Source: Psammoneis japonica (lineage: Eukaryota). From it: 64,000 nt of DNA. The position numbers were made by a program, and so were the translations under genes. The notes beneath the pieces were generated by a model. It saw only the letters and a program-made list of their open reading frames with translations, ran no database searches and was not told the origin of the DNA. The stretch lies in contig QPGO01000022.1 of NCBI GenBank assembly GCA_008632985.1, positions 434,001-498,000 of the forward strand, in the 5' to 3' direction. This document shows positions 1-37,116 of this stretch, piece after piece (positions within the stretch are counted from its first letter, which is position 1; every line of letters starts with the position of its first letter).

Positions 1-481
1 CTTGTCTGTCTGGAGGTGATTGAGACTCACCCAGAGCCCAGCGGAGCCAATCGGAGCCAACAACAAGTGTCAAGATGAACCGCAGCAACATGTGAAGGAG
101 GACGCAGCTGATGGAATGCGGGCAGAGAAGGTGCCGGCATGCAAAGTGGCAGCATGGCTGTCGACAAGGCACCAGTTTTTAAGGTCTAATGGTGACAAAC
201 ATGGTGAGCATTTGCCAAAAGCACGTTGCTGCCTGCCTCCATTTTGGCAACATGCAAAAACAGCATGTTGCACATCACATGCAGAACCCAAACGGCGAGA
301 GTGGCCTCTCATGGAATTGCACACAATGACCCAGTCCTGGAAAATGGAGCAGTGTCCAAGTCACATGCACCATTTGAAACCTTGCCAAGTCACCTGCAAA
401 CAAATGCCAATTCGCTGACCTCTCCAACTTGAAACTAAAAAACTGTGAAAGCATGCCTGCCATCTGGTTGTCATCAGGTTT

Positions 482-1670: not shown

Positions 1671-1989
1671 GGTCGAGTCGACGAAACGCGTGTTTTTTGT
1701 GCGGAGAAAAAGAGCTCCCGAAAGTGCGCTTCCGACCCCTCGGTTTTTGGTGGTTAGAGTTTTAGGGGAGCTGTGGAACAGGAATTTTTGCTTGTGGAAC
1801 ACACACACACGTGTGGATGTTGACATTAAAACTCAACGCACGGCGAAGCCGTGTGCGCACAACCACGCACACACACACAGCTCCCCTGCCACAGGGGTGT
1901 GCTCCGGCGGTGAAAAAAGACGAAAAGTTTGGCGGTCCATTTTAATTAGAACTCGCAAATGTTTTTAAAAATAACCCGGATTCTTCGTG

Positions 1990-3714: not shown

Positions 3715-6251
3715 TGCCAACGATGCACGCGTTCGCCAAAAATGTGCTCGCATGGGTCGAACTTTGTCCGTTTGCAAGATGTCATGGAATGCATGCACAA
3801 TGAACACAAAGGTTCGGGATCTCTAGAATGACAACTGCAGATGTGTCCATGGCCAGTCAAATGCCAATTGCTGGCCTTTCCTGGAAAGTCGCTGCTCATC
3901 TGCCACAAACAGCCTGATTTTGGCAAAAAACAGTGGTTTGTCGAATGTGACAACCGCACCCAATGCGACAATTGGCATTTGAAGGTTGATGAGTGTAGCT
4001 CATGTCAAGGTCCAACAGCCCTGATGGGGGCTGGACACACACACAAGTGTTCAGGGGTGCTCAGATGCATCGCAAAACAACACGGGTGAAGTGTGAGCAA
4101 ACCGTCGCATCACGAGCCATTTAAAAAAAAATGCCGCCAAACATCGATCCAGCCTCAACACCAGATGGGTCTCTAGAGGGCCCTGGCTAGAGAGAGTCTG
4201 CTCCCCATCATTTTCCAAGATTTTCCAGTCGTGAAACCTGACAACACCTGAGGCGAGTCCGAACCAATTGTGTGCTCCACCTCCAAACCCCACCCCCTTC
4301 AAGGTTCCAGATTCCTTCTTGGATCACAGCCCACTTGCCAATCACAGCTTCGCAGCACCTGGTGCAAATCCCACTGCGACAGTCAGTTTGTTGCCAGTCA
4401 GTCCCGGGAAGAATGGAAACGCCACCACAAGTTGCAGTCATGATCACGCAGGTCAGGCACTGAAAAGACTCAACGGCAAGTTCAATGCCATGACCTGCAC
4501 AGGCCCTGCATGCTGTGATTGTCGGGTTGTTTGCTGGCTGTGGTCAATGCCAGAACCTGTGTAGATTCTACGTGCTGTGATGAATGGACAATTTTGACCC
4601 CCCCCCCCCTGTCACACGCGGAAGCTTGAGGCGGAACACAGCTTTAATTCTGACTCACCTGACAACACCTGACGACATCATGCATTGCGTGTTTTTGCGC
4701 GATGTCACAGTTGTCCGGTCACAAGGTCAGAAAAATTTTGCAGGTTGAACGATGAGGAGTGCATGTTTTTCAATCACACACATTTGGTGCTTGACAAAAT
4801 GTGACCTGGCAGCCTCGCCTGAAAGGCGCCGCTGCTGCCATGAGACCCAGGCCTCAAGCAACTTGGAGCTGGCATGGCAGGCGCGCTCTGGATGAGTTTG
4901 CATGCCATCACCACGGTGACAACATGGAGAAATTGTCAAAAACCCGCCGGAGCCAATGACGACATTGACGCAGCAGACAAGGTGTCCAAACATTCGTCGT
5001 TTCTTGGGCCATCACAACAGAAGCTCTGTTGGACCCTCATCAACACACCACTGCAATCATCCATTCGGAGATGTGCAGTTCGGCGAGAAATGTTGAAACA
5101 TGCCGTTTTGCTTTGTCGTGACACCATGTTGCATGCAGACGACACATCAACTCACCATTTGCCAGATTTTCGGCACCCGCTGAGTGAAAGTCCAAGTTTG
5201 TTAAAAGGCAAGTGAGTTGAAAATCAAAATGGTGTTGTCAACGCATCTGAGGCTCACCACTTGTTGTCTCACTCAACTTTCTTGCCGCCACAGCCAGCTC
5301 TCACTGTCTTGCCCAGCATGAGCACACATCAACGAATCCAACATCGTCATCACATCGTCAAGCCCATTTGATCAATGGCATTGACCAGACGAACATTTTT
5401 GAAGAATTTGACAGTGCACATGCAATGCATTCAGCCAAGCATTCTTGAATGGGAGAGAGTCGGGCAGATCATGAGAGTGAAAATGAAGAATGAAGTTGGT
5501 GCGCGGTTCAAGAAAAAAGCAGTCAAACATGGTTGACAAAACACTCTGATGCTGTCACTCCACAGAGTGACAAATGACAGTGAACAGAGCTTCTCCCGGG
5601 CTTGCACACACTCTAGATTGATTGCAAAGACACAAGTGTCAAATCTGAAAATGGAAAAGTGCGGCTTGTGAGTGAGCATTCGTGGATTGCTTCACCCACT
5701 CACAGCATGAAAGAGGTCAGACACAGTTGTCACAAGGTCAAAGACAAATTAGAAAGCAGAACATTGCCATAAAATTGGTTTGTGATGATGTTGTCATCTA
5801 ATCTCGGTGTCGAGAAAGGGTCAATCTCACTTCATCGCACAGCGAGTCATGTGTCTTGAATCCCACATGACCCACTCGACTCAAAATTTTGGCAGAACTG
5901 GCTGGACTTTGACCCCAGCTAGAGCCACAAATTGCACAAGACCTGAGCATCATCAGTCTCATGCTCTTTAAACAGGTGCCTTGCGAGAATGTGGCGGGCA
6001 TGCATTGTTTGTGGCATCTGGCATTTCAAAATGGAGCTGGCTTTTCATGGAGCACCTTTGTCACACGGGCAAGTGCAAGAGTCAACATTCAGTGATTGGT
6101 TGGCAACTGACGTTCACCCCCATTCCAGGCCCCCAAAAGTGTGCTGAACTGCACATCTGGATGCTGTCAGTCGATCAAGGTGGGTGTTTGGTTCAAAACG
6201 GGGGGCTAATTTTTTTCACGTGGCATCATGAAGCTGGGACGGAAAGCTGCT

Positions 6252-6803
6252 GACGTGTTCCAGTCCCAGGTGACGCACAAAACGACAATTGATTTTGAAC
6301 ACAAATTGTGCATCTTTTGGTGCATGGAGCATTTTCATGTGAAGTGCTCGTGCGGATTGGCTTTTGTGGGCGGCCAGAGCATGAACATTTAAATGGTTTT
6401 TTGTGGGGCATTCAAGTCCTCATGGGACATGCATCACAAACTTCCTCAGCAGACTCAACACTGATTGTGCATCAGCAGATTTACACTGAGATTTCTTTGC
6501 AGGCAGAAAACCCACCAAGCAGCATCTTAAAAAGACACGTTTGGGTGACATCCAAATGACGGCAACATTTTCACCGAAAATCATCCGTTGTGTTGCGAAT
6601 CTTTTGACACAATGAAAAACACAGACAGCACAACAACAATGACCTTGCAACACTCACACGAGTCTTGTCAGTGTTGCAAAACATTTGTGTTTGCACGAGT
6701 CTGTGCTTTTGGTGGTGAAAGATCGATCGTAAGTTGGGGGCCGCAAAAATCGCACAAATGTTGTTTTGTGCACAATTTGGTTCACGTGCGGCTGGAACAC
6801 GTC
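6252..6803. mobile_element. MITE / non-autonomous DNA transposon, copy A
   Basis: Perfect 12-bp TIRs GACGTGTTCCAG...CTGGAACACGTC and a 4-bp TSD TGCT (6248-6251 / 6804-6807). Homologous along its length to 6973-7528. Confidence 0.9.
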
Positions 6804-6972
6804 TGCTGCATGATGCTGGATGTGCAGCATGTGCAGTGCTGCAGCCTGCAGAGGCACACGAAAAGTTTTGTTTGAATGAAAGCAATGACAATGGACAACA
6901 ACGCAACAGCTGACAACACACAACGCCAAAGCACGGGGAGAGCGGAGAGCGGAGAGCGGAGAGCGACCATGC

Positions 6973-7528
6973 GACATGTTCCAGTCCCAGGCAATGCACA
7001 AAACAACAATCAATTTTGAATGTAAATCATGCATCTTTTGGTGCATGGAGCATTTTCATGTAAAATGCTTGAGCGGATTGGCTTTTGTGGGCATCCAGAG
7101 TGCGAACATTTAAATGATTTTTTTGTGGGGCATTCAAGTCCTCATGGGACATGCATCACAAACTTCCTCAGTGGACTCAACACTGATTGTGCGTCAGCAG
7201 ATTCATGCTGGGATTTCTTTGCAGGTGGAAAACCCACCAAGCAGCATCACAGAAAGATGCACTTGGGCAACATCCAAATGACGGCAATGTTTTCGCCAAA
7301 AATCATCCGTTGTGTTGCGAATCTTTTAACGCAATGAAAAATGCAGATGGCACAGTGACAATGACATTGCAACACTCACACGAGTCTTGTCAGTGTCACA
7401 AAACATTTGTGTTTGCACAAATCTGTGCTTTTGGTGGTGAAAGATCGATCGCAAGTTGGGGACTGTGCAAAAATCGTGCAAATGTCGTTTTTGTGCACGA
7501 TTTGGTTCACGTGCGGCTGGAACATGTC
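6973..7528. mobile_element. MITE / non-autonomous DNA transposon, copy B
   Basis: TIRs GACATGTTCCAG...CTGGAACATGTC and a 4-bp TSD ATGC (6969-6972 / 7529-7532). Confidence 0.9.
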
Positions 7529-8061
7529 ATGCCAACAAAAGACAACCCAAGATCCAAAGAGCAGCAGGAGCTCAAAAGGAATGCCAAGAACACAAAAGGA
7601 AAGAGAAGGAGGAGAAAGCGATGCGCAAACAGGAGCAAAACCGGTTGCACAAACAGAAGAGTCGAGAGCGGCAGAACGAAGAGCAGATCGAGTGGGAGAA
7701 AGTCGCTCGAATCGAATGTCGAGAATGTGAAAGGCTGGAGAAGGTGGAGAAGCAGGAACGCCAATGAAAGCAAAACCGGGAGCGCAAACAGAAGAGCCGA
7801 GAACGGCAGTGCAACGCATCAGTCGTGGCCGACGGCAATGATGCCAAGACCACCAACGGCAACACGCAGCGCAACTTGAACACGGGTGTTGGTCGAGCAC
7901 CCAGACACAGTCCTGGCGATGAAGAAGCAAGTGCTCGAAGATGGAAGAAAGTGTCATTCCCCACACACGAACGCTCACATCATTGTCAGGAAGAGCGAGC
8001 AAACGTGAAACCAGGACAATTGTACGTGCGTGGATTCCTGACACTCCGTCTTGCCATCTGA
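7529..8061 (+). pseudogene. Relic charged/coiled-coil ORF whose ATG lies in the MITE B target site
   Basis: ATGCCAACAAAA (MPTKDNPRSKEQQELK...) followed by K/E/R/Q-rich frames broken by a frameshift and a TGA. Confidence 0.35.
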
Positions 8062-8182
8062 CTCAACAATCTTTCACCGACAGCGCTTCGTGCTTTTCTT
8101 CAATGAGGAGTCGTCTTGCTTGCTTGAGCGAGGTAGGAGTTGGTCGAAAAAGGCTTCTCTCTTCGTTCCACCATCCTCCATC

Positions 8183-15831: not shown

Positions 15832-18800
15832 ATTTTCAGCCTGTCAGGGTTCTCTCCAAGTTCAGAGGGTTATCCACGCTAGATGAATGTAAGCACAGCT
15901 GTACATGTCGAAGGCTTGGAGGAGACTTATAGATGCTACCTGTGCTTTGGCGTTCCTCAAGATAGTACGGCAAGATTATTGACGGCAATCATTTCTTTAT
16001 AGAACTAGTAACCGCGACTCCGACAGACACAACAACGTCATGTTTTTGGTCCAAAACTACCTTTTTGTTTCTGCCTAGATCCGAGGTAAACGATTCGTTG
16101 TCCTCTGCCTTGCTTCTGCCATGCCCCGAGCAGGAAAACAGATCCCATTTTCCTTTGTGATATGTTGAATGCAAGATACGTCTTCTCTCGACAATTGAAA
16201 ATACTGGGAACTGTTCCTGGTTTCTGCGCTCGCAAAATGACATAGAGACCGCTTGTTGCAAAAATACACAAGAGTCTCTTTTTGTCGTTTCGTCCTTGAA
16301 CAACAGGTTTTGCTCCTTGTTTCAATGTTCGCTGCAGCTAGACTGTGATAATACTTGCGCAGAATAGATGCTTGTTTGGAGTCTATTTCTCGATGTCCAT
16401 GAATGATGACCTGGAGAATGAAGATCGCTTCGGGCCCACCTGTTCAACACTTCCCAGTGACAGGAATTGCTCGTGAGAAACAGTCAGTGGTCATTGTCAA
16501 CAAGTCTTTCAACAACTGCAGCATCATGTCCAAGTCTCACCAGTGGCCTCACAGTTCTCCTCAAACATTGAGGAGCCAGTGCTGTGGGTGTGCAAGTGAC
16601 AGTGCTTGAGGATGGAAACAACTGGCATCACACCAGCAACAACAACGTTGATCCTGTGTGTGTTCACTTTGCACCCACATCATCCCAAGAATCATTGCAA
16701 AATGTTTGATCACTGTGCAACACAAAACAAGAACAATGGAGAGAATGTAAGAAATTGGTGGACAAAGGCCAGTGCACCAGAGCCAAGGATTGAATCATGG
16801 CATTGTCCAAAACAAAATTCTGTCAAATGTCATTGCCCCATGCTCCACACAACAAGACAGCCCCTTCTGTTGATGAGATGGCTCTTGCACCTCAAAACAA
16901 ATGATGTTGTCTTGGCATGAGAGCACAGCAATGGTTGAGACAAAAGCCCATCACACAACAGACCAAAGAGCAAGCAATGAATGAGAATGTTGTTGTGGGC
17001 ACTCCTCTGGCTGGGAATGGAGGGAGATGTGGCAGGAGCAGTGCAGCATGAACACTTCATTGCAAGCACTGGTTGACTGTCACATCATGATTGACAACAA
17101 ACTTGAAAGAACTGGTGCATGGTGGCTCACAAGTGCTGCAGGAACAACAGCTCAATTTGCTTTTGCTTGACAGCTTTGTCATTGGCACCTGCATCCAGTG
17201 CTGTCAGAGCCTTGGTGGGACATGTTGTTGGCCAACAGGCTCCTGATCCAACAAAGCACAACAAGATCCTGCGTTGATTTTGAAGATTTGTGTCACAATT
17301 TTCAAGGTTGTTGTGCCCTCAAGCAGCTGCTGGATTGAAGAAATGCTCAACAGCAAGATTGTCAAATTAACAACCACAAAGTGGACTGCATCACAAAGCA
17401 CCTCAGTTGTGTTGCATCACCCATGCAAGGACATCATCAGCACCCCTTTGATCTCAACAAGACTGACCCAATGAAAAAAGCTGCACTCAGAAGCAAGGGC
17501 ATCAAAGGTTCTTGGCAAGTGAAGAAACAGGTCTCAACCTTTTTTGCACCTCTCTCTAACTTTCAAAAGCACATGTCCTTGCCCATGCTTCTGCAAACTG
17601 TCCACAGATGGGCTGCTCTGTGGTGGCTTTGCCTGCAGGGACCCCTTTGCAATGAGGCAGCATTTTGCAGCTGTGTGGTGGCTCCAATGTTTGATGTTGA
17701 TGACATGGTGGCCAAGTGCAGAGACACATGTTGTTGGCTTGCTGGCTCCTGCCAGAAAAAACAAACATGGGTGGCAACCAGCCAGTGCTGAAAACTTCTG
17801 TGCACTTGGCAGGGCTCTCAGCTGGCTGTGCTTCAACAAACTGCTTGTTGCAGCTGGCTTGCCTTCTGTCAAACCCCTCAATGTGGTGGTGCACCCCCAG
17901 CAACCCAGTGCACATGGTTGTGCTGCAGCAAAGATTGTTTGAGCTGCCTTTTCAAAAGTTGCTGGGGACCTTCAGTGGTGAAGCAAGCAACCATTGCTGC
18001 CCCTGCAAACAAGTCAACATTGCTGGCTGGAGTCAAGAGTGGCCCAGGCACAGAAAAAGGAAAATGCAAAAATGCAAAGCTGTCTCTGTCCACTGACAAA
18101 CAGTTTGCTTGCTTCTCCACAGCCATCATCTCATCAATTCTTGGGGTGGCAAAGAAAGCAGTGGCAGCCCTCTGTCCCAGCTTGCTCCAATGGACAGAGA
18201 GAAGACATGAGGCTGCAGAGAACAGAGATTGTCAGACCAAATTGGAGCAAATCAACTCCATGACATCCTGCCTCATTGCAAAACACAACAGCCAAACCAG
18301 AACAAAGTTGGCATGCAATGAACACTCTCTCAGCTTTGTTTGTGGCAACAAAAACACAGAAAAGCTTGTTGAGTGACAGACCAGCCACCATTCTCAACTT
18401 TGAAAAAGGCTGTGGCATTGTTGAGCTTGTTGCAACTTGCAACAACATGAGGTGTCAGCAAAAATGATTGATGAGACTGTGGGAATTTTTGTGAGTGAGA
18501 TGCTGGCTCCAGCTCCAAGTGCTGGCACACATGTGTGCCTTGATGCCCCCTCCCCCCCACACACACACACTTCAGTGCAAAGTTCTTCTTCAATTTTTGA
18601 ATCTTTTTTTCAAAATCACAAGGTGAGTGTGCACAAGTGCATGCTCCACCAGCCCAGCATTTCTGCTGTGCAGGTGATTTGGAACACCCAGCCAAGTTTC
18701 TGTTCTTTTTGCAGATTGGTGATGTGCTTTGGCCACTTGGTTTGGCTTTTTGCCATTTGCAATCAGGTGTGAGATCACCACTTGTTGACTTTGCTCTTGG

Positions 18801-19559
18801 CTCTGTGCTGATGTGCCCCCAACCCAGCATCTCACTTTGCCCCTTTCTTGTTTGAAGCAGTTGGTGCATGTGCACAACAGTGGTCCACAGCTGACAGCCA
18901 TGCATCCCCAAGGGAAGCTCTCTGGCTCTCCAAAATGAGCAAGGGTTGGCAGTCAAAGAAATGGATTTGACTTGGCAGATGAAAGTGCACAAGAACCTCC
19001 CTTGTTGCTGCAGAAAGGAAGCACTGCAAAAGCAAGAGATGACAAACAATGGACTTTGTTGTTTTGTGTCATGAGGCACTGGGAGAGTCCAGCCCAGATC
19101 ATGAGCAGCAGCACACAAGCATCCAACCAGGAGAAAGAAGATCATGAAGGACAGCAAGATTCAGCCAGCAGCACAGAGAGTTTAATAAAGAAAGCTCATG
19201 CTCTGATGGTGGCATGAATGCCAAGGGTTGCAAAAGAGTCATTTTGTGGTGGAGCAACAAGGGGCATTGCAAATTGGTTGTGGTGAAGTGCAGATTGCAG
19301 ATGGCAATGCCATGTGAGCCACCCACAAGCAAGTTGGTAAATGCCAAGCCAAAGAGCCTTGCATGTGTGCCACATGGCAGCATCATTGTGGTGCAAGATG
19401 AAAAAAAAACAGATCCAATTTATGGTGCTGCCACTTCTTCACCAGCCAGGCCAGTGCTGGCTGACTCACACTCCCAGCACATTAAAAAAAATGCAGTGCC
19501 AGAAGGTGACACCCAATTGAAGTTGCTGAGAACGGCTGGAGTGCTGCAAAGCCTGAAGA

Positions 19560-20700
19560 GCTTCACTTCCTTTGTGCTTGCATTCAGGCATGGTTTAACT
19601 GCAGAGACCCATTTTTTGTTCTTGTTGTGTGAGTGAGCAAGGTGCTCCCCACATTCTCCATCAAAATGTCACAGTCCTTGGCAAGGCATTCTTGTCTTTT
19701 GTTGTAAATGGCAGTGAGTTCAGCCTCTCCCACCCAATGCTGCAAGGACTTGTGAGATTTGATGTCAAGGCCATGCACTTTCTTGTTGTGCTCTTCCCAC
19801 AAGCCTCACCAGGAATTCCCAATGCATGTGCCTGTCTGCACTGGCCAGGTGGGTGGCTGGTCATTCTGTTCTTGACATTGATGCAGAAGACCCAACTCAC
19901 ACAGACACATCTCCTGAAAGGCACTCCACAGTCATGAGAACCTGCTGTTGAACATTTGCCTCCATCCCATGTCACTCTGTTGTGCCACAAAGAATGCAGC
20001 ATCAGATCTGCGTCTGAATCACAGAAAAATTGGCCATGGAACTGAGCCTCCAGAGACAAGAGAAGAAAATCACACAATGGAGGCATGGTGCCTGACACAT
20101 TGCAATGTCAGTGCAGTCCTTGAAGAAAAGTGCAATGCCAAGGTTTGTTGTCTGGGCAACGGAGAATGTGATCCCTGTCTTCTGCCCATGGGGTGGTCAC
20201 AAGAGAGGCAGGAGTGAGGACAGACTGGGTTGTGCCAATGGACAATCTTGTTTGCAGGCAGCAGCTCACAAACCAGTTTCGCTGTTGAGATGTGTTTCTT
20301 GGAATGCCGGCGGATCAATGTTTTGTGGACAGGCCAATCCATTGTCTGTCCATGACTGACAATGACCAGCCATTGCCACTCTCTGATGTGCTCCAACAGT
20401 GGAAGAGCTGCAGCTGCACATCGTGTGGCAGCCTCATGTCCAGCAGTGATGGCACTGTCCTCTGGACAGAGGCAAGCCTGACAATGAGGGAATGGGATGA
20501 CCTGAGAAGTGTCGTGATCACACAGACCTTGACAACACCCTGCCAACATGTCAGCTTGGACATTGATCTTTGCATTTCTGTCAACCACCCACTTTGTCAA
20601 ACAAGGGTGGCTGTTGGTGCTGCCACTTTGAATGACTTTGCAGTCAGGCACAGAGCAGTTTTTGGCAACTGCAATTGGATGTGCCACTGTCTCCCAGCTC
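19560..20700 (-). mobile_element. 3' part of a non-LTR retrotransposon ORF (RNase H end + zinc-binding region), degenerate
   Basis: NVQADMLA (RNase H N..AD.LA), MDW...KLVCELLP...CPHSCLSC and WEEHNKKVHG resemble LINE C-termini. Confidence 0.5.
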
Positions 20701-20867
20701 TGTGGCTTCCTCCTGGGCTTGAGAAACTTTGTCCTTCTTGCTTGGCCTTGTGACACATTGGTGCAAATCATGCAAATTTCATGTTTGTTGCTGTGTGGGG
20801 TGGGTGTGCTTGTTCACCAACAAGTTGCAACCCATTCCAATGAAAAACAATGGAGGCTTCAAAGATG

Positions 20868-21348
20868 CTGTGTGCACAGGGCATTTGTCTCAACAGCCTC
20901 AGTTTTGACAAGAAACAAGTGTCCCACCAGCACATGTCAATGGAAAGCACCACAACACAACTTGTCATTGAACTGCCCTCACACAGCAACTTCTCATTGT
21001 TTCTTCTGACCACAAAAACAGCACTGCTGCCATGACCCAAAAGAGCACAGTGGTGTCCTGAGTTTGGCTGGGTTCAAAAGGGTTGCTTTGATGAAACCCA
21101 GGGATGTTGAGGACACTGTGTGCACAGGGCATTTGTCTCAACAACCTCACTTTTGACAAGAAACAAGTGTCCTCCAAGCACATGTCAATGAAAAGCACCA
21201 CAACAAAGCTTGTTGTTGCACCCTCACACACCAGCTTCTCATTGCTTCTTCTGCCCACAAAAACAGCACTGCTGCTGTGACCCAAAAGGGCAGAGTGGTG
21301 TCTTGTGCTTGGCTGGGTTTAAAAGGGTTGCTTTGATCAAACCCAGGG
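20868..21348. repeat. Tandem duplication, ~248-bp unit x 2
   Basis: CTGTGTGCACAGGGCATTTGTCTCAAC...AAACCCAGGG occurs at ~20868-21103 and ~21116-21348. Confidence 0.9.
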
Positions 21349-24300
21349 CCATTTGTGCACTTGTCATGCACAGAAATTTGTGCCAAAACCATGCTTGCAC
21401 TGTTGGGGCACACAACTTGTTTTGTGCAAAAAAAAAATTGAGCACAGCAGCAAGGGCACACTTTCCATGCATTCTGTGCCAAATGACTGTGACTCTGGCA
21501 AGAAGGCAGTCCTGGCTGTCATGTCAAAACAACTGCCATGCTGCACACTTTTCCTTTTTTGAGTGAAACCACCATGTTGTGCACTTTTCTCTTTTTGAGT
21601 TCCTTGTTTCTCCTTGGCAACTTTGGTGGGGCCACATCTTGTCTTTCTTGCACAAAACAAATCCCAGTGGCTTTATGGAGAGGAGCACAACTTGTGCTTG
21701 GGTCCTCTTGTGCTCCTTTGTGAAGGACATCAACATCTGCTTCTCTTTGGTTGGATTTTTTGTTGCGCACTTTTTGCTTCTTGAATGATGCCTTGTTTCT
21801 CCTTAGTGTCTGTCAAGTGGACATTGTCAGCCAGCCCCAATGTGCAGTCATTTTCAGTGTCACCCTGGTGGATGCTTGCCATGCCACCAGCAAGGCTTCC
21901 CACATGCCATCACACCATGGTGCACCCCACAAAGGCACCAAAATGTGTGTTCTGGACCTGTCCAAACTCACCACATGCTCCCCATGCACCAGGCAACTGC
22001 TTGCATGCTGTGAAGCTCCATGGTCATGTGCTTCAACCAGGAGACACATCAGCACAGAACTGTGCAGGGGAGTTGCACACTGGAGCCCACTGCCTGGACA
22101 CACAGCACACCAAAGTTGTCCCACCCCTGGGTTCTCACCTTGGCCTGCTGCCACACACAGTGGCATGCTGCAACATGATGATCTCCCCATGGGCTGTGGT
22201 TTGATCCCTCAAAACAGTTCCCCATTGTTCTGCATCTGAGTGCAATGTTGCCAATTGCTCCCAGAACACTCTCTGCTTGGCAGGGCCATGTCTTGCCTTT
22301 GCAATGATCCTTTTGAGGAACACCAAGTGATGCCTGGCAGTTTGTGGTTGGATTGCTTGTGTGCCTCTGCCCTGTCCTTGAGAATGAAATTAAGCTGTTG
22401 TGCCAGCAACTGTGGCAGAGTTGTTGGGGCTGATCTGACAACCTTTGAAGACAGGCAAGCAATTTGTGTTGCCAGATTTTTGTTGTTCTTGTTGTTTTGC
22501 ATGGCCAGCTGCAGCAGTGGTTTGCTTCCAACACAAAACTTGTTCCGTGCAACTTTTTTGTTGGACCAGCTCTGGCTGCTCATGATGTTGGCTGCCACAG
22601 CAGAGAAAAGTCCAACATCCAACATGTTTTTTGTCAACAGAGCTCCCCACCAATTGTCTCAAGTTGGACAAAGACAAGGTCAATGTTTTGCCTCCCAAGC
22701 CAAGCCCCCCTCCCACAAAGCAGCACACCAGGCAGTGCAGCACAAAGTCGGCCGGAAAGTCATGTGTGCCAGGAGCAATGTGAGCAACAATGTTTTTGCC
22801 AGAATTGTCAGAATTCATGAAAGCAGCAAAGCTGGACACTGCACTGGTGTTCTCTTCTTCAATGAGCAAGAGAACAGACAAAGATGGCCTGACAAGCAAG
22901 AGTCTGTCACCCACCCCACAAACACCAGCACCCAGCACAAAGAAAGGGCAGGACATTCTCTGCCACTGCAACAGCAAGCTGTGTGATGGCCAATGTTTTC
23001 AGCAGGGTGTGCTGTGTGCTTTGCTTGGCAACAATGATGTCATTTCAATCCAATGTCAAAGCTCATGATGGGCCAGCTGTGCACATGAGATTGCTTGCCA
23101 AGAGCCTCAAAGGCACAAGCTGCCAAGCTGTGGCAGGGTGCATGAGCTGCCTTCAGTGGCAGCAAATGCTGGAGCCAACCCCAATGTTGCCACCTGTGGC
23201 TGTGCAATGCTGCACTCACATCTGAAACAGTCTGAACCAAAAGCACAAAAGAGCTGTTGCAGGGCATGCAAATGTTTGCATGATGTGCAATGGCAAGGGC
23301 TGGCCATTGAGCAAGATCTGTTGAGAAAGGTTGAGCATCATGTGGACATCAGCTGGGCAGGCTTTTGGCAAGACTGCCTGTTCAATGAGATCTCCCTGTC
23401 TTCTGTGCACCCTCAGCCCCAAGCACTGCTGCAAAGCACAGCACATTGTGTCACTGTGTCCTCTGCTTTGTGAGAAATTGTTGACATCACAAGCTGTGTG
23501 GAGGAGCTGAAGCAAAGAAGTTTTCTGTTGATTGCTGCAATTTTCAGAAGAAGGTTGTGTTGGGCGTTTGAGGAGAACAACTCACTGTGCCAGCCACAGA
23601 AGCACCTGTCTGCACATCTGCACCACATGCTGCATTTGTGCCAAGCCAACGGAATTGACAAGCTCGTCAAAGTGCATGACAAGTCAGCATCATGGCCTTC
23701 CTCATCCAGCTGCCAGGGAGTGAAAGGAAATCATGAATCTCCTGGCTGAGAGGCAGATCTGCCAGCAGCTCTCTCATGCACCTGAAAGCAAGTCAGGCCA
23801 TTGCAAAAGTGGAGATTGTGGGGCTCCTGTTGATCACCTTGCTCCCCCCCTCCCTCTCACTTTTGCCACAAGCACACTTTGCTCTACCATTTGTTTGGCT
23901 GGGTGCTCTTTTGACGACTCTTGCAAATGCAGCAACAAGCCAGATGCATGGCTCAAGCCCTGATGGTTGCATTTGATTGACTCAGCTGGCTTGTGAGCGC
24001 ACAACATCATTTGTGCAAAGAAAAAAACAAAAGTTGCAGCTGAGCTGTGACATTCATTGTGAGCAATTTCCTGCTGAAATTTCAACAAAAACTCCTCACC
24101 AACCATGCTGAGAGTGATGCTGTGATGCTTGTTGTCATGTCTCATTCCGCATTGGAGGCACTTGTTGTGAAGGGAAACCAGCGTTGGCCAGGTGCTCTTT
24201 CATCTGCAATCACACAGGAAAACAATGACAGGGCTGAGAGAGAGAGAGAGAGAGCCAACATTCTCTGATGTGATGGCCCAGCTGAGTGTCAGTGCTTGCC

Positions 24301-25377
24301 AAAAAGAAGTGTGAAGTTCTTGGACGACAAGGGGTGCTGTTTGCTTTCAATGCTTGTCAGGTGTGTGGTCCACCCCCACCCAAATGTCACATTTTTCTCA
24401 TGACACAAGAATCAAAAATGATCCAGAGTCCTTGAGTCAGGGCTGGCCAACAAAAAAGAAAAAGCTTGCTGAAAGCTTGCGCACTTCAACATTTGTTTTT
24501 GAAGCAAAGCAAATGCCTCCCCCCTCCAAGGCAGGGCTGCTGGAGATTGGTGTGCCAACCTTGTCCAGCATTGCTTCACATCTGTTGTGGAAACAATTTG
24601 CACACCTGACACAGCAGCACTGAGCACATTGCAGCTGACTGCATCTCTCACATTTGTGCATGAGTGCACTGACACCAGCACCCAGCAGCTGCAGCAGAGA
24701 TGTTGGGGTCACGTGAGATGGATGACAAGGGGCATGTGGCAAGAATCCTGGCATCCATTGCTGCACAGCATGCAGGGGTGTGTTGTTGACAAGGTGGGCA
24801 AGTGTGGAAATTTTGCTGCAAGTGACATGTGCAGGCTCCTTGTGAGAAGATTGCTGCACCAGCAGCAAGAAAGAGGGAAGAGAAAGGAGGTCTGAGTTTC
24901 ATTTCAGCAGCAGCAGCAGAGCCAAGAAGCTGTGGAATGGCATGCAAGAAAAATGGCTGGTGAGGTGGTTGATGTGGAGCCACCAATGGCGTGGGGGACA
25001 GAGCTGCGTTGATCAGTGGAGCAAGACATGCAGTTGTCGCATTGAGAGCTGTCGTCACAGTCAAAAGAGTAAGGGAGCAAGGCCCAGGAAATGAGCACAA
25101 AGATGGGAAGTCTCGCATGCGGGCCACTGCACGAAGTGCTGTAGACGGTACCACGACACCGTGTGAATATTTCTCGTATGTAGGAGGTATACTACGAGCA
25201 CGTATCAATCGATTTTGGATGCAGTTGGAAGTCGAAAAAAATAGAGTTGAATGACAATAATCCACAATGGGTGTGGGTGCAAACCCCGTTCTCGCGTTAC
25301 ACCGCTGGACTTGTAGCCCCCTTGCATTGAAAAGTAGAGTTGTCACGTCCTCCCTGTCTCTTCCATATTAGGACGCC

Positions 25378-31926: not shown

Positions 31927-33911
31927 TCTGAATGCAGGTCGTCCCTTTGAGAGCCAGTTGCTGGGATAACTGTTGTGAGGGGGGAGAGATGCTGTAGACT
32001 ACTGTAGAGTAAAGAGACTTGAAAAAGTGCTAAAGGATTCGAATTCTTGCTGTGTGCTTTTTCCTAAATGCAAAACATTGAAGCAGCACGGAAGCAAAAC
32101 TAGAGCGAAGCTAAAGTCCATCAATGAATGTTTTAGGGTGAAACATTTTCAATTTTGGTCAAGAAGCGAACATGCGCAGGCCATTGGGGTAACATGATCA
32201 TCTATCTACGACTAAGTCTTCGTTGAATTCCAACACGGCGTCGGGCAGGCAGAGCGGATGGATAGAATGGCTGGCTAGAGCCAAGGCATGGATGGATGGC
32301 ACTGGATGGATGGAATGGACAGCCATGGATGGAACTCATGCCGAGCAAAAAGCACATGGAGCCATGCCCATTCACGATGTGTCTTTTTCGGATGTCATGG
32401 ATGCACACAACAGATGGCTCCCACCTCAAACAGCCACATTGCCCATGAAGTGTCGTAAGTTGAAGAAGATGTGTTGGATGTTGATTCCCAGGTGGACATT
32501 GCAAGCGCCACTCCAGTGAGCATCAAGACAACTGCTTTGCCTTCTGCCTCACATGTGACCTCTTTTGTTGGAGTTCTCACATGTTTGCAGATTCCAAGTG
32601 GGGCCCAGTTCACACATCTCCTGCCAGCTGTGCTGCTGACAACGTGTCTCAAGCTGCAGATGCATCAGCCATTGGTTCCCAGATGGACACCTCGAACAAT
32701 GTTTGGATGAGTGTCAAATGTCTGCTGTGTCTCACCTGAGCCATCTGCAGCAATTTTTCATTTTGGCTTGCTGCTGTTCTCCACCAGCTTGATGGCATGC
32801 TTTCATCAAATGACAAGGCAAGCCTGCTCCAGACCTGCAGTGCTTTTGTTGTTCTGGCTGTGCAATGGCTGTCACATGCATCAGATGGGCAGATTGTCAG
32901 CTTGGAGGCTGTGCTGCCTGCTTGCTGCCTCTGTGATGCCATGGTGTGACAGCTGTGGCGTGGGTGCAGTCAATGCTTTGGTGGTGGCCAAATCAACTCA
33001 TGCTTGGATTTTTGGCTCTGACAGCTGTCAATGATTTTGGATGCACAAAGCCAGCACCATTGCTTCTCTCATCTGAGCAAGCATGACCAGTGGAAGCTGG
33101 GCAACTGTGAAAGGGGGCGACCAAATGTTGTTGCACCTTCCACCACTCTGTGACCGCTTGACCTCTTTCCTCCACAGTCAATGCCGTTGTCATGCTGCAC
33201 AGTGCTTTTCATGGGGTGCTCCTGACTTGTCAATTGTTGCTGGCCACAATTTCACAGTTCCCACCAGCCAGGGGAGAGAGCAAGAACGTGGCAAAGAGGA
33301 AGCATTCAAGCTCAGCAAGCATGGAAGAAACTGTCATGATGATGCCTCATTTGGGAGCCCATGTTTCAAACAGCAGCTGCAGCCTGATTCTCACTTGCCA
33401 TGCACCCAATTTCTTCTGACATTGAGTTGCTCAATCACAAAATGTTTTTGTCCTGCATGTTTTTCAGGTTTGAAGAATGGTGTGGGGCATGTGTTGCTCA
33501 ACAAGATTTGTTGGAAACTGCTGATGATGCTTTTTGTCGAAGTTGAAGTTTTTGGTTTGTGCTGTGCAGCTGGGCCTGGCCATTTGTTGCATCATCTGGC
33601 TTGCCAGCTTGCCACCTTTCTGTTGAAAGGTTGTTTTTGTGGTGCACTGTTGCAGCTCTGCGATCTTCACTTGTTGGACAGACATTGCAGATCAGGAGAG
33701 AGCAGTGTCAGCATGCGCTGGACCTGGGTGCATGTGCAGATCTCTCTGAGATCTCTCACTTTCTTTCATCTGGCATCATGCTCACTGATGCTGCTGTCCC
33801 AGCATCTTGTTGGGTCACTGCCCATGCATTGTTGTGTGAGAGATCTGCTTGGCTGTCTTGTTCTGGCTGTTGTGCAGTGATCCACAGAGTTGGTGTGCTG
33901 ACAGCGATGGC

Positions 33912-33913
<2 letters not shown>

Positions 33914-33982
<69 letters not shown>
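33914..33982. repeat. (GA)n microsatellite (shorter tracts at ~24236, ~35237 and ~35543)
   Basis: Perfect GA dinucleotide run. Confidence 0.98.
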
Positions 33983-33984
<2 letters not shown>

Positions 33985-34099
33985 GCTGTTGCCATCTCAA
34001 GCCAGTCAACAAGTGCATCACAAGATTGCACTTCTGCCTGAAAAAAAGCAAAAAGTGGAAGAGAAGTGGAAGTTGGGGGCAGTGTTGGCAGAAGGGAGC

Positions 34100-35542
34100 A
34101 GACGACAAATTACAAAAAGTCGCACGCAAGCAACCATCTTACTTTAAAAGCTCGTTGTACCTCAAGAATGAGCTGGTCCAAATGGCAGCACCACCAAACT
34201 GCCTGCTTTTCACCTCTGATGCCAAGTCCTGCTGCTCGAACATCCCAACAAACAAAGCCCTTTGAGCAATTGCGGCCTGTCTATGATGACACAAGAATGA
34301 ATTCCAAGACGCACCAGCAGAAGCCCTCATTGAAGCCCTCTGCATCACAATGAAACACAGTGTCTTTGCTTTCGGTGACACCACATGGCTCCAACGCAGT
34401 GGCACCGCAATGGGCACACCACCTGCCCTGCCACATGCCACGCTCTTTTGTGCTCTACACGAAGCCACTCTCCTGGAGGAGTTTGGCACAAACCTGGTTT
34501 TCTGCAAATGATTTATGAGTGACGTCTTTGGCATCTGGCAAATTGCCAAATCAACCTCCGACGCCACTCGCTGGAATGCACTCACCTCCAGAATGAATGA
34601 CTGCAACATCAATTGGGTCACGAGTCCAAGGGCCCACCAAGCAAACTTCATGGACCTCACCATCACACTCCAAGGCTCCAACCCACACACCACTCTTTAT
34701 GAAAAAGAAATGAATTTACACCTGCACATCCCTCCACATTCAGCTCACCCACCTGGAGTGCTCACCGGCCCAATTGTGGGCATGCTCTTTTGCTTCAAGA
34801 ATCTCTGCTCAGACCCTGCTGACACAAAAGCAAAGATGAAACTTCTTTGCCATTGACTGCTTGCTTGAGGCCACAAGCCCAGCAAGCTCCAACCCATCTT
34901 CCAAAAGGCATGCAACCACCTCTTTGGCAATGAAACAACTGTGAACAAGCCCCCAACCAATCCTCCCATCTTCCCACATGTCCCATGCCATCTGAACAAC
35001 CCACCATCCAGCAAACTGCAAAAGACATGGAAAGGAACGATGGCCTCTCCACCACACTCCCAGCCACTTGCCAACATTCAAAATCACAACCAACAAAACA
35101 CATTGGCCCAGACCACATGATCATTTGCTGCAATTGGTCAGGCAACCTTGGCAACCTTCTTTTGTGCCACATCCTTCACACCTCCAATGGCCCCCCAGTT
35201 TCGTCCCACCGGATTACAAGCAGGGAGGCCACTGTGAGAGAGAGAGAGAGAGAGAGAGAGAGTGCAATGACATGAATTCAAACTGAATCAATCGACTCAA
35301 ATCACCTTTCCCTTGCCCCCGAATCTTTTTAACATGACAACCTCAACCACGTAAACAACAACAGTCAGCCGCTGATGAAGCCACCACACGAAAGTCTCAC
35401 TCCTGACTTCGGCCAACGTTGTTGTGCCTGCCATTCACTGAAACAGTTGGGTGAAGATCTGAGCTGGTGGCTCCACCTCAGCTGCTCTCATTCTTTGTTT
35501 GTCATGTTTGACAGAGAATTGGCTGCACCAATTCCTTTGTTT
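34100..35542 (+). mobile_element. 5'-truncated Penelope-like retroelement (RT + thumb; no GIY-YIG seen)
   Basis: Motifs LFTSDAKSCCSNIPT, FAFGDTTWLQRSGTAMGTPPA, K*FMSDVFGIW, FMDLTI, TTLYEKEMNLHLHIPPHSAHPPG and NLGNLL. In-frame TGA stops. Confidence 0.85.
35356..35424 (+). ncRNA. Type I hammerhead ribozyme (Penelope-associated)
   Basis: CTGATGA core at 35372-35378 and GAAA at 35390-35393. Stem III is AGTC/GACT. Stem I is CAACAAC-A-GTcaGCCG / CGGCcaAC-GTTGTTG. Stem II is minimal. Confidence 0.7.
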
Positions 35543-37116
35543 GAGAGAGAGAGAGAGAGAGAGAGAGCTGCTTTTGCCATCTCAAGCCAGTCAACAAGTG
35601 CATCACAAGATTTGCACTTCTGCCTGAAAAAAAGCAAGAAGTGGAAGAGAGGTGGAAGTTGGGGGCAGTGTTGACAGAAGGGAGCATCCCTGGAGAGTGG
35701 CCTGCCATGCTTGCTGCCAGCAAGCACTTTGTTTGGGGCTCTTTCTGTCTCTCTCTTTTCCAAAAAAGAAAGGATGAAATGCACAGCAGAGCATGTGTTT
35801 TGATGCCAGCCATGGAGGTTGCAGCTCTCTTCTCCTTCCCTCAAAGGTTTCTCATGAAAAAAGACTCCAGAACTTGAAGATTCTTTCTGCTGGGGCTGAT
35901 GGCATTGTGACAAGTTTGTTGCTGCAGTGTGGAAACTGCCAGAGAAAAGAGAAACAGTGGTGAGTTGCGATGTGACCATGTGTGCCCTTTTCTCCATCTT
36001 TCATTCCAGAGATGAGAGCACCAAGTTTCGTTTCTCATTCCTCTCTTTCTGAAAATGTGTTGCCACTTGTGGCTCTCTTTCCTGGGCAACTCTGCTCATG
36101 TGAAAGAGTGCGCCTTGTTCTTGGAGGAGCGCCGCAAGAGTGAGGGGGCGCAGGAGTGGGAGCAAGAACCAGCACTCGAAAATTTGGTGCCTGGCGGAAG
36201 CAGAAAAGGGCCTCTTGCTTGTCAATGCAGCAGGGATGGTCACCATGACCACTTTTGGACTGAGCCACTTCTTTGTCCCCTCCTGGCTTTCTGGCTGGGT
36301 GGCAGAGCGACCTGGGATTTTTTGACTGCTGGTGTGCTCGCTTTGACTGCCGGTGTGCTTGCCATCACAGCTGCAGAGCCTTGATTTGTGCTTGGTCACT
36401 TGGCTTGATGAAGTGGACTCCAGATTTGTTCCATTCCACCAGGGGCATTTTGTTTGTGCTGCTCGAAAAAAGGCTGGAATCATCGATCCCACATTGTTGC
36501 ACACTGCCCTGCTCTCTCCATCCACCCCCTTGTCACCTGGCTGGCGCCTGGCTGTACAAGAATGCAGAATCTGGAATCTTACTGAGTTGCTTCTATTTTA
36601 CCCTTTTGTACCGGTTACTTGTTCCTGTGCGTAGAAATCCACTGGGAAACATACCAAGTTTCCGCCGGGGCAACTTTTAGTGATAAATTCGACGGTCAAG
36701 AGGTAGGTTGACGATGACGAAGGTTGTTGCCGCCGCTACTCCATTTGAATTGTTGTCGACGATTGACAAGCCGCTGTTTATAGCCGTATTATGTTTGCTG
36801 TTGGTAATGTTGGCGACCAGATTGATCGTGGGGAGAGCAGTGCTTGCAACTGGATGGGGAGCACCGCGGTGTGCGTTGTAGCTACCATGAGGAACAGAAA
36901 CAAACCTTCGGATGCCACTTGGATCGAATGAACTGAATCTGATATGACTGATATACTTTGTGTTTTCGATGCAAGTGCTTGGTATTTCGAGATCGAACCC
37001 GTTCAAGTTGAAAGACCATAGAGTTCGCGTTTCATGTAGTGTCACTCATTCGTGTCTTTCCTCTTGTTTTCAGACTTTTGTCGGTTTCCACTTTCGTTCA
37101 ATCACACGCTGGAATC

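Follow-up and report, generated by a model that had tools for sequence, protein, structure and literature searches.

About one third of a 64-kb stretch of Psammoneis japonica DNA (the window, the whole of the sequence analysed here) consists of islands from which the dinucleotide TpA has been erased. Most likely (probability about 0.8), these islands are non-genic DNA that became saturated in place with TpA transitions of the type described in Bigelowiella natans, with decay of CpG proceeding as a separate process.

TpA erasure is confined to discrete blocks

The observed/expected ratio (o/e) of TpA is 0.03-0.10 in four blocks of the window, as against ~0.60 in genic DNA. The blocks are listed below, with the TA count expected for each calculated from the genic TA ratio of the window.

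1..8020, no strand: B1, TpA-erased, most CpG kept; 48 TA against 294 expected; runs past the left end of the window; o/e over 1-8000: TA 0.10, CG 0.69, CA 1.66, TG 1.65
16390..25140, no strand: B2, TpA and CpG erased; 16 TA against 344 expected; o/e over 16400-25000: TA 0.03, CG 0.05, CA 1.85, TG 1.98
32280..36550, no strand: B3, TpA-erased, CpG-poor; 13 TA against 160 expected; o/e over 32300-36200: TA 0.05, CG 0.22, CA 1.63, TG 1.80
62000..64000, no strand: B4, TpA-erased, CpG-poor; 7 TA against 81 expected; runs past the right end of the window; o/e over 62000-64000: TA 0.05, CG 0.14, CA 1.89, TG 1.88

The corresponding values for three genic stretches were 0.57-0.61 for TA, 0.95-1.01 for CG and 1.06-1.22 for CA/TG. 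The TA deficit relative to the genic ratio has a Poisson P of ~1e-122 in B2 and of 1e-26 to 1e-71 in B1, B3 and B4. Counts given in the initial annotation of this DNA (16 TA in 16390-25140, 7 in 62000-64000 and 7 in 8221-8340) were reproduced exactly, and the enrichment of TG and CA that it reported for the blocks was borne out (o/e 1.6-2.0). ApA is not depleted, displaying an o/e of 1.14-1.40 in the blocks versus 1.07-1.14 in genes, and TpT is likewise undepleted. An origin in Pol-eta-type WA->WG synthesis, one of the mechanisms suggested earlier, is therefore disfavoured.

The borders between genes and blocks are as sharp as had been claimed, the transition taking place within tens of bases. 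At the left border of B2 the last outside TA lies at 16384 and the next at 16748, while at the right border a lone TA at 25070 is followed by dense TA from 25142 on. TpA loss is restricted to the discrete blocks, which occupy entire intergenic spaces, and the adjoining genes present a TA o/e of 0.57-0.61. Surviving TAs display a graded dependence on sequence context with no all-or-none motif. Direct repeats of 9 bp and 8 bp were identified at the borders of B2 and B3, respectively, and are possible target-site duplications, the chance probability of the 9-bp repeat being ~0.11.

Loss of CpG was observed in B2-B4 (CG o/e 0.05-0.22) and is not a property of B1, where most CpG is kept (0.69). Because B1 has lost TpA yet keeps its CpG, CpG loss constitutes a separate process. 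Judged by dinucleotide composition, CpG decay in B2-B4, presumably by 5mC deamination, is additional to the loss of TpA.

Conversion in place and on both strands

In genic DNA the pyrimidine-purine steps comprise ~145 TG+CA, 40 TA and 56 CG per kb (sum ~241), and in the blocks ~240, 1.5 and 3 per kb, respectively (sum ~245). The conserved total indicates that TA was lost by transitions in place. Random conversion of all TA and CG in the window's genic DNA was simulated, giving ratios of 1.97 for CA and 1.90 for TG (observed in B2, 1.85 and 1.98), while conversion of all TA and 30% of CG gave 1.61 and 1.58 (observed in B1, 1.66 and 1.65). The fit of this simple model to B2 and B4 is incomplete, with residuals for ApT (0.76 versus 0.92 simulated), GpC (1.32 versus 1.07) and GA/TC (~0.88 versus 1.07). 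The two products are balanced between strands in B2 (1050 TG and 1040 CA), and runs tests (z of -0.9 to -2.3, the same as in genic DNA) revealed no extra strand-coordinated clustering.

Three sets of internal copies allow the changes to be followed site by site.

654..1558, no strand: 181-bp tandem array of ~5 copies in B1 (Tandem Repeats Finder)
6252..7528, no strand: duplicated segment in B1, 6252-6803 and 6973-7528 (pairwise alignment)
20868..21348, no strand: 245-bp tandem duplication in B2 (Tandem Repeats Finder and self-comparison)

In the 181-bp array, nine CG columns are invariant in 5/5 copies; 10 columns are mixtures of TG and CA with zero CG, and one further column reads TA in one copy and TG in four. 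Apart from CG, only TA can become either TG or CA by a single transition. Across the 10 columns and 5 copies this gives 50 inferred TA sites, every one of them converted, and CpG is ~96% intact. These TG/CA mixtures without CG, together with the intact CG columns, thus point to conversion of TA in place and independently of CpG. Identity among the copies rises from 90% at the nucleotide level to 98% in purine/pyrimidine code.

The duplicate pair in B1 differs at 66 of 552 aligned positions. Transitions account for 62 of these differences and interconversions of pyrimidine-purine steps for 54, including 16 CG<->TG/CA and 6 TA<->TG/CA differences. Adjacent TG<->CA doubles number 16, versus 6 adjacent doubles of other kinds, and identity changes from 87.4% (nucleotide) to 98.6% (purine/pyrimidine code). 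Heterogeneous CpG decay might explain a fraction of this pair's TG<->CA doubles, but not those of the tandem array. The 245-bp duplication in B2 presents 25 differences, three of which are TG<->CA doubles, with an identity of 88.6% at the nucleotide level and 94.6% in purine/pyrimidine code.

A reverse-transcriptase remnant in B3 polarises the changes

The only recognisable coding homology in the blocks lies in B3, in the following context.

34038..35230, + strand: 5'-truncated remnant of a retroelement reverse transcriptase with in-frame stops (phmmer, tblastn)
33914..34100, no strand: (GA)n microsatellite and left copy of a 143-bp direct repeat (self-comparison, Tandem Repeats Finder)

The right copy of the 143-bp repeat extends from 35543 to 35686 (96.5% identity), and the two copies flank the remnant, which covers family residues ~240-645 of ~650. 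A phmmer search with the remnant returned 5623 matches at E <= 1e-3 (best E = 1.2e-74, 49% identity), and tblastn of 10 family members against the window gave 34038-35230 as the only match. Reverse-transcriptase palm motifs, including the YxDD box, are common to the remnant and this large family, the alignment of which (A1) contains a Y-I-D-D box with the consensus YRRYIDDVFGIW. The remnant resembles the endonuclease-less Penelope-like retroelements in its Y-I-D-D reverse transcriptase and 5'-truncated copy. By its ESM-Atlas features the family may be Penelope-like; the nearest ESM-Atlas clusters carry DUF8422, HTH_animal and RVT_1, which serve as a lead only, and no GIY-YIG domain was seen.

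Eight columns of the alignment are conserved as Tyr, defined as Tyr in at least 70% of 19 homologues. The remnant retains Tyr at two of these, has TGC/TGT at four and CAT/CAC at two, and thus reads Cys or His at 6/8. At the conserved Arg columns it has TGA/TGC in 3/3, and it keeps the consensus residue at 83/98 other conserved columns. Polarised in this way, the changes at conserved Tyr codons (TAY to TGY in four cases, TAY to CAY in two) support the TA->TG/CA direction that had been proposed. The remnant itself has an o/e of 0.14 for TA and 0.30 for CG. Relatives that were equally poor in TpA were not encountered: all 77 metagenome loci of the remnant's family are TA-normal (TA o/e 0.44-0.84, mean 0.64), with the qualification that they were chosen by Tyr-containing peptide patterns, which biases the set towards unmutated copies. 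The metagenome protein cluster P0190, located on other contigs and 38% identical to the remnant, displays Cys or His at 7/8 conserved Tyr columns and constitutes a second case.

The description of the islands as transposon blocks is supported for 34038-35230 in B3, a retroelement being demonstrated for 1.2 kb only, and not for the remainder, which is without recognisable homology. A Pfam search over all six frames of all four blocks revealed no real match. Little weight attaches to this result, since Pfam failed to match the remnant itself and 8/8 intact family members tested. No homologue was found for the B2 frame 21724-22983, and the ORFs of the retroelement loci had no match in B1, B2 or B4. 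The suggestion that the process is restricted to repeats was not supported by comparison within the window and with X1, although the block DNA may in the distant past have been duplicated elsewhere in the genome. No similarity between blocks was observed, whether in nucleotides or in purine/pyrimidine code; the word depth of the contig over B2 described below is approximately that of the flanking genes; and a diverged tandem pair of paralogous genes (47.3-49.0 kb, 65.7% identical) has normal TA. By depth and self-comparison, the blocks look single-copy and mutually unrelated.

A separate contig reproduces the erasure

A contig from public run X1 spans 16837-24418 with 24 mismatches and 11 gaps (99.5% identity) at a uniform word depth of ~60. 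The contig lacks TA and CG to the same degree, although this support is not fully independent, since X1 possibly supplied the reads from which the window was assembled and no platform is recorded for it. Six of the 14 surviving TAs within this span read TG or CA in the contig. Among the 23 mismatches listed, six, each of them TA->TG/CA, fall on TA, which provides 28 of 7582 positions (odds ratio 121, P = 1.4e-10); two further mismatches are TG<->CA doubles. Allelic variation, differences between strains or errors of assembly could underlie such differences between the window and X1. The window departs from the X1 contigs mostly in small indels, with 4 gaps over 2.8 kb of genic flank and 11 over 7.6 kb of block, which suggests a long-read assembly.

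The paralogues, the polarity within the protein family, the TA-normal relatives and the X1 differences together uphold the second process proposed in the initial annotation, in which A:T is changed to G:C at the TpA steps of both strands, in place and in blocks only. To the extent that sequence comparison can do so, they demonstrate its direction, TpA specificity, strand symmetry, in-place timing and confinement to the blocks.

Alternative explanations

An artefact of sequencing or assembly, for instance a long-read assembly with heavily modified bases consistently miscalled, would accord with the small indels relative to X1 and with the unrecorded platform of that run. It is hardly credible, as the separately built X1 contig (depth ~60) is TA- and CG-free at 99.5% identity, column-wise consensus of strand-specific miscalls should retain many TA and CG where none were seen, the Tyr->Cys/His pattern recurs in the unrelated metagenome cluster P0190, and the remnant displays ordinary decay too, in its 5' truncation and other substitutions. 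Foreign DNA from a donor or virus that had always been without TA or CG would be compatible with the sharp borders and with the short direct repeats that border B2 (9 bp) and B3 (8 bp) as possible target-site duplications, although the former has a chance probability of ~0.11. Such a native composition is refuted for B1 and B3 and very improbable overall: Cys or His codons have taken the place of Tyr codons conserved in the reverse-transcriptase family, 77/77 relatives are TA-normal, and a given site has independently become TG in one copy and CA in another within a block. A third possibility is that copies arrived already mutated, through A-to-I editing of RNA by ADAR- or ADAT-like, UpA-preferring enzymes followed by reverse transcription. 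The retroelement remnant in B3 is consistent with this proposal, as is the reported preference of such enzymes for U 5' of the edited A (bioRxiv 10.64898/2026.01.13.699255, in the sections drawn on here). Editing of one strand would, however, give TG without CA, yet TG equals CA and the two are interleaved; copies at the same locus diverged at TA sites after duplication in place; most block DNA is without retroelement homology; and differences at the remaining TAs are allele-like. The RNA-editing explanation is thus largely refuted, and we hold it to be highly unlikely.

The islands might also be a passive by-product, in which their chromatin renders TpA hypermutable, either because local repair or replication is deficient or error-prone or because the TpA step, which unstacks easily, suffers spontaneous damage, and no enzyme is aimed at foreign DNA. 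In line with this, the window reveals neither an enzyme nor a targeting signal, the blocks are of mixed origin and occupy whole intergenic spaces, and surviving TAs are graded by context. The specificity is nevertheless extreme, with array TA sites converted 50/50 while CpG is ~96% intact; undepleted ApA speaks against Pol-eta-type WA->WG synthesis; and in B. natans the process was active in 11/15 lines, which, in the portion of the preprint used here, its authors read as regulation (bioRxiv 10.64898/2026.01.13.699255). We regard a passive origin as unlikely.

Proposed mechanism and significance

In the preferred reading, that of saturation in place by TpA transitions, the islands would be non-genic DNA, part of one block being a retroelement remnant, that probably resides in silenced chromatin. 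Saturating A:T->G:C transitions at TpA would have accumulated while this DNA sat at its present loci, at perhaps ~100 times or more the rate of other substitutions, and equal targeting of both strands means that each TA would resolve to TG or CA at random. The signature known from silent, single-copy viral insertions of B. natans would here have run to completion in a diatom, and CpG->TpG/CpA decay would be an ordinary second process, far advanced in three of four blocks. An enzyme is presumably responsible, the likeliest candidate being an ADAT/TadA-type DNA adenine deaminase recruited by chromatin state and the main alternative oxidation of thymine to a base that mispairs with G. Since TpA is self-complementary, adenine deamination and thymine modification are indistinguishable from sequence alone. 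A role in genome defence may be envisaged. Somewhat short of an even chance, in our estimate, is the wider proposition that diatoms, and by extension the SAR supergroup, to which Bigelowiella also belongs, possess dedicated, chromatin-guided and saturating A:T->G:C editing at TpA of silenced or invading DNA that is independent of duplication and of CpG methylation.

As far as the consulted part of the source goes, TpA-specific A:T->G:C hypermutation had been seen once before, in a 2026 chlorarachniophyte preprint, where its footprint is faint and its generality open. The window presents a saturated footprint in a diatom, a member of a separate major lineage with good genetic tools, together with internal controls establishing that the changes occurred in place and independently of CpG decay. 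TpA erasure may therefore be a widespread means of disabling silent or foreign DNA. If general, it would explain why much 'dark' intergenic DNA of diatoms lacks recognisable homology, imply that the repeat and transposon content of such genomes is underestimated, allow silenced or foreign DNA to be mapped simply by an index of low TpA with high CpA+TpG, and point to a candidate enzyme that edits A:T pairs of double-stranded DNA in vivo. A dedicated system, should one exist, would amount to a 'reverse RIP' of ancient origin, shaping at least one third of some algal genomes and removing the homology by which old mobile elements are recognised, and might furnish a natural base editor for adenine (or thymine) in double-stranded DNA.

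Comparison with known systems

Deamination of 5mC yields the same products, TpG and CpA, and accounts for the CpG loss of B2-B4 and for the CGN->TGN changes at Arg codons of the remnant. It cannot remove TpA, in contrast with B1 and its array, which lost TpA and kept CpG. Fungal RIP is similarly local, limited to transitions, dinucleotide-specific and sharply bordered, and it also deprives mobile DNA of coding capacity and leaves a scannable dinucleotide index. Its direction is the opposite, CpA->TpA, while the diatom blocks lose TpA and gain CpA/TpG. RIP requires duplicated DNA and operates premeiotically via RID-type enzymes; no sign of a need for duplication was observed in the diatom window. 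Fungal RIP itself is ruled out by the TpA erasure, the CpA/TpG enrichment and the Tyr->Cys/His polarity.

Restriction by APOBEC3, acting on cDNA, and by ADAR, acting on dsRNA, resembles the blocks in that hypermutation inactivates the invading nucleic acid, and ADAT2/3 and TadA target A after U, which fits TpA. APOBEC differs in producing C->T changes, and ADAR in its RNA substrate and in a strand asymmetry after reverse transcription. Activity on DNA has been reported for amphioxus ADAT2, according to the excerpt consulted (PMC10354150).

The initial annotation knew of no described system of this kind. That holds for diatoms in so far as a literature search for TpA-erasing hypermutation in diatoms found no report, and does not hold more broadly, since mutation-accumulation lines of B. 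natans have yielded a direct measurement of the TpA->TpG/CpA signature (Mettrop et al., bioRxiv 10.64898/2026.01.13.699255). The sections of that preprint used here, which contain no mention of diatoms and tie the signature to no enzyme, place 231/302 new mutations in two viral insertions, a giant-virus (NCLDV) insertion and a virophage, both single-copy and silent; all but one of the insertion mutations are A>G or T>C, each at TpA (bioRxiv 10.64898/2026.01.13.699255). The rate was ~6e-7 per site per generation, and the B. natans genome contains clusters of 1-kb windows, poor in TpA and high in CpA+TpG, in which unannotated, reverse-transcriptase and DDE-type genes abound (same source). As far as those sections extend, B. 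natans shares with the diatom blocks TpA->TpG and TpA->CpA changes on both strands, in discrete regions beside normally mutating DNA. It belongs to Rhizaria, and its mutations were measured directly, while those of the diatom are deduced from end states. Its targets are viral insertions, as opposed to one retroelement remnant and DNA without recognisable homology, and CpG decay accompanies the signature in 3/4 diatom blocks, unlike in B. natans. Finally, depletion in B. natans is mild, with a Rho TpA of 0.45 in the NCLDV insertion and a cluster cut-off of <=0.43, in contrast with 0.03-0.10 in the diatom.

Composition of the TpA-depleted blocks

The window consists of nuclear DNA from a diatom; ordinary housekeeping genes occupy its genic stretches, and the protein of the Utp11 gene (14938-15831) displays 66-68% identity with diatom proteins. 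Four blocks, termed B1 to B4 and together covering ~23 kb of the 64-kb window, have been almost emptied of TpA:

B1, positions 1-8020: TpA lost, CpG kept
B2, positions 16390-25140: TpA and CpG both lost
B3, positions 32280-36550: TpA and CpG both lost
B4, positions 62000-64000: TpA and CpG both lost

The observed/expected ratio (o/e) of TpA is 0.03-0.10 in B1-B4 compared with 0.57-0.61 in the genes of the window, while that of TpG and CpA is nearly doubled (1.63-1.98 against 1.06-1.22). The TA counts of the initial annotation, which were 16 in B2, 7 in B4 and 7 in 8221-8340, are exact, and the borders it described as sharp are precise to within tens of bases. The 16 TA dinucleotides of B2 compare with 344 expected at the genic ratio (P ~1e-122). 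In contrast with the CpG o/e of 0.05-0.22 in B2-B4, B1 presents an overall value of 0.69, and its subregion 7501-8000 contains 32 CG and 0 TA. Since B1 lacks TpA yet retains CpG, the two depletions are separable.

The inner edge of B1 (7187-8062) contains overlapping open frames of 230 and 228 aa on opposite strands. This segment is purine-rich, encodes Lys/Glu/Arg-rich frames with no Pfam match, and combines 0 TA with normal CpG; it may be a gene exon or low-complexity DNA. Direct repeats are located at the composition borders of B2 (9 bp, TATTTCTCG, at 16384-16392 and 25168-25176) and of B3 (8 bp, TGGCTGGC, at 32268-32275 and 36538-36545). At most, these repeats may have arisen as target-site duplications when the blocks were inserted; a common 9-mer is expected by chance in ~11% of comparable window pairs.

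Loss of TpA through transitions in place

TpA was lost in place, through transitions. The number of pyrimidine-purine steps is conserved: genes contain ~241 of them per kb (145 TG+CA, 40 TA, 56 CG), and the blocks ~245 (240 TG+CA, 1.5 TA, 3 CG). When TA and CG in the window's own genic DNA were switched at random to TG or CA, conversion of all TA and CG gave values of 1.97 for CA and 1.90 for TG, against 1.85 and 1.98 actually observed in B2, and conversion of all TA with 30% of CG gave 1.61 for CA and 1.58 for TG, where B1 has 1.66 and 1.65. Residuals beyond this conversion model were observed in B2 and B4, comprising reduced ApT (0.74-0.76 against 0.92 simulated), a drop absent from B1, together with high GpC (1.32-1.38 against 1.07) and low GpA/TpC (0.80-0.89 against 1.06-1.08).

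Duplicated copies within B1 record the individual conversions. A 181-bp tandem array comprises five copies in which nine CG columns are unbroken throughout, ten further columns are TG/CA mixtures (1:4, 3:2, 2:3 or 4:1) with zero CG, and one column shows TA in a single copy and TG in the other four. As TA is, besides CG, the sole dinucleotide lying one transition from both TG and CA, the mixture columns were TA when the array formed; each copy then resolved its former TA sites independently, with CpG ~96% intact meanwhile. The larger duplicate 6252-6803/6973-7528 displays 66 differences over 552 aligned positions, of which 62 are transitions. These differences include 16 adjacent TG-versus-CA doubles, compared with six other adjacent doubles of all kinds, as well as 16 cases of CG against TG/CA, six of TA against TG/CA, and 12 differences elsewhere. 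Reduction to purine/pyrimidine code raises identity from 87.4 to 98.6% for this pair, from 90 to 98% for the tandem array, and from 88.6 to 94.6% for a tandem duplication located in B2. For the B1 duplicate pair, TA conversion per lineage is estimated at ~90% or more and background divergence at ~2%, corresponding roughly to a rate ratio of ~100 or more.

A reverse-transcriptase remnant polarises the changes

Reading through stop codons in B3 revealed a protein-like stretch:

RT remnant, positions 34038-35230 (+): truncated retroelement reverse-transcriptase gene, first ~240 residues missing, with in-frame stops

In a full HMMER search, this stretch matched 5623 related proteins ~640-700 aa long, the best of them at E = 1.2e-74 and 49% identity; one relative comes from the diatom Cylindrotheca closterium. 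Family motifs are CDKNLGPA, FGDT.W.Q..GTAMG and YRRYIDDVFGIW, the last of which includes the YxDD box of reverse transcriptase (RT). The nearest ESM-Atlas clusters carry DUF8422, HTH_animal and RVT_1, and ESM-Atlas features offer a lead towards Penelope-like elements. At 33914-34100 and 35543-35686, the remnant is bracketed by a (GA)34 microsatellite and the copies, 96.5% identical, of a 143-bp direct repeat. The repeat itself contains GA-rich sequence and may belong to the ends of the element or to its insertion mechanism.

Eight columns in which at least 70% of 19 homologues carry Tyr were used for polarisation. The remnant retains Tyr at two of them and displays TGC/TGT at four and CAT/CAC at two, such that all six changed codons represent TA->TG or TA->CA. 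The three conserved Arg are likewise all TGA or TGC, i.e. CpG->TpG, while 83 of the 98 remaining conserved columns are kept. Intact relatives are not TpA-poor, which answers one of the refuting conditions set in the initial annotation: 77 metagenome loci of the family, which were picked by peptide patterns including Tyr and are biased toward unmutated copies, present a TA o/e of 0.44-0.84 (mean 0.64), with CG at 0.91 and TG/CA at 1.15, against 0.14, 0.30 and 1.71, respectively, in the remnant.

A similar signature was observed in one metagenome protein cluster. Among 174 RT-family proteins checked for composition (150 listed matches of 5623, plus fetched cluster mates), P0190, encoded on several metagenome contigs, deviates strongly from the rest, having 0.9% Tyr, 5.1% Cys and 7.1% His, compared with family means of 4.2%, 1.5% and 3.7%, and two cluster mates (cluster P0190/P0295/P0296) agree with it. 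Cys or His occupies seven of its eight conserved Tyr columns. Since P0190 is merely 38% identical to the RT remnant, it is another element, of the same or another organism; its protein sequence hints that it may have undergone a TpA process like that of the window.

Support from sequencing runs

A public sequencing run, X1, and a second run of the same sample, X2, were compared with the window. X1 contains 0.90 of sampled words from 15400-19400; a contig built from it spans 16837-24418, differs from the window by 24 mismatches and 11 gaps, and is as free of TA and CG. Mean word depth in this contig over B2 is 60.4, compared with 54.3 and 48.4 over the flanking genes, which is consistent with single-copy DNA, word depth being no copy number. 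Because the X1 platform is not on record and the run may be the window's own assembly data, this support is not fully independent. Within 14000-27000, X2, of a type not on record, yielded contigs for the genes flanking B2 and almost nothing over B2 itself. Differences between the window and X1 contigs are mostly 1-2-base indels, suggesting that the window derives from a long-read assembly. Two 227-bp stretches (53240-53466 and 53749-53975) are 100% identical, and the only N of the window (53467) directly follows the first; the arrangement resembles an assembly gap whose flanks were duplicated, in or beside the FAD-oxidoreductase gene.

A sequencing artefact, such as miscalls at modified bases, is a very improbable cause of the absence of TA and CG. 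Column-wise miscalls would leave many TA and CG, whereas none were seen, and the replacement of Tyr by Cys or His recurs in the unrelated P0190 cluster.

Site preference and timing of TpA conversion

Conversion is strand-symmetric, with 1050 TG and 1040 CA in B2, where strand-coordinated TG or CA tracts were not found beyond the level of genic DNA. RNA editing before reverse transcription is largely excluded by this symmetry together with the in-place divergence of copies. The 84 TAs surviving in all four blocks are highly biased in context: TTAA accounts for 27% of them, compared with 3% of genic TAs, while ATAT and ATAC account for none, compared with 22%. In the half-site following the surviving TA, A is present in 54%, compared with an expected 20-25%, and T in 6.5%, compared with an expected 24-27%, a bias that persists even against contexts where back-mutation creates TAs (chi-square P = 6e-18). 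The flanking-base preference would thus correspond to a removal order of TAT > TAC > TAG > TAA. ApA is not depleted in the blocks, which argues against Pol-eta-type synthesis (WA->WG), one of the mechanisms initially put forward. As TpA is self-complementary, sequence does not discriminate between deamination of the adenine and a modification that makes the thymine mispair with G.

Over 16837-24418, 23 mismatches to the X1 contig are listed, and six of them fall on the 28 bases of the 14 surviving TAs (odds ratio 121, P = 1.4e-10). All six convert TA to TG or CA; a further two places are TG-versus-CA doubles. By our count, differences reach ~3.6 per kb in B2 compared with ~0.9 per kb in the genic flanks. 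These differences may represent alleles, strain differences or assembly errors; the mismatches at surviving TAs are signs that conversion is recent or ongoing.

Nature of the targeted DNA

The designation of the blocks as transposons is demonstrated solely for the 1.2-kb RT remnant. Pfam searches of 121 block ORFs of at least 90 aa returned only sub-threshold F-box_4, DUF3915 and Atrophin-1 matches, taken as chance or low-complexity, and six-frame read-throughs of B1-B4 (X at stops) gave no real match. Neither the RT remnant nor any of eight relatives examined was recognised by Pfam, and its blanks are therefore weak evidence on the absence of transposons. When 612 ORFs from the 77 RT-related loci were compared with the window by tblastn, matches were confined to 34000-35400. 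A stop-poor frame in B2 (21724-22983) had no homologue in a word-index search of proteins of 231-735 aa, and a purine/pyrimidine hexamer coding score was too weak to recognise former ORFs, the known RT remnant scoring only ~12.

The proposed restriction to repeats is not supported. B1-B4 are mutually unrelated in nucleotide and in purine/pyrimidine code, where similarity between blocks did not exceed a reversed-sequence control, and contain only short internal duplications. The tandem DUF7467 paralogues at 47279-48088 and 48142-48993 (-), which share 65.7% nucleotide identity, present normal TpA and CpG and serve as a control in which old gene duplicates escape TpA loss. The most that can be said is that the targets are non-genic, probably silenced and partly mobile-element-derived DNA.

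Comparison with known systems

The core of the initial annotation, a second, TpA-specific A:T->G:C process limited to particular DNA, is strongly supported. CpG decay accounts only for the CpG part of the depletion. Fungal RIP requires duplication, and its direction is the mirror image of the TpA process of the window. The framing as a repeat-induced, transposon-wide and undescribed system is not supported. A like process is reported in Bigelowiella natans in a 2026 preprint (bioRxiv 10.64898/2026.01.13.699255). In its mutation-accumulation lines, two silent, single-copy viral insertions received 231 of the 302 new mutations; 230 of the 231 were A>G or T>C, and each of these changes lay at TpA. 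The rate was ~6e-7 per site per generation, in 11 of 15 lines only. The B. natans genome contains 124 clusters of TpA-poor, CpA+TpG-rich windows, and ADAT2/3 homologues were proposed as candidate enzymes. The preprint does not mention diatoms, and searches of open-access papers and bioRxiv gave no account of TpA erasure in this group. The diatom blocks share every sequence-level feature of the B. natans hypermutation, with o/e values of 0.03-0.10, i.e. saturation, in contrast with 0.45 in B. natans. The diatom blocks represent an extreme case of a signature known for only a few months, and they occur in a lineage amenable to experiments.
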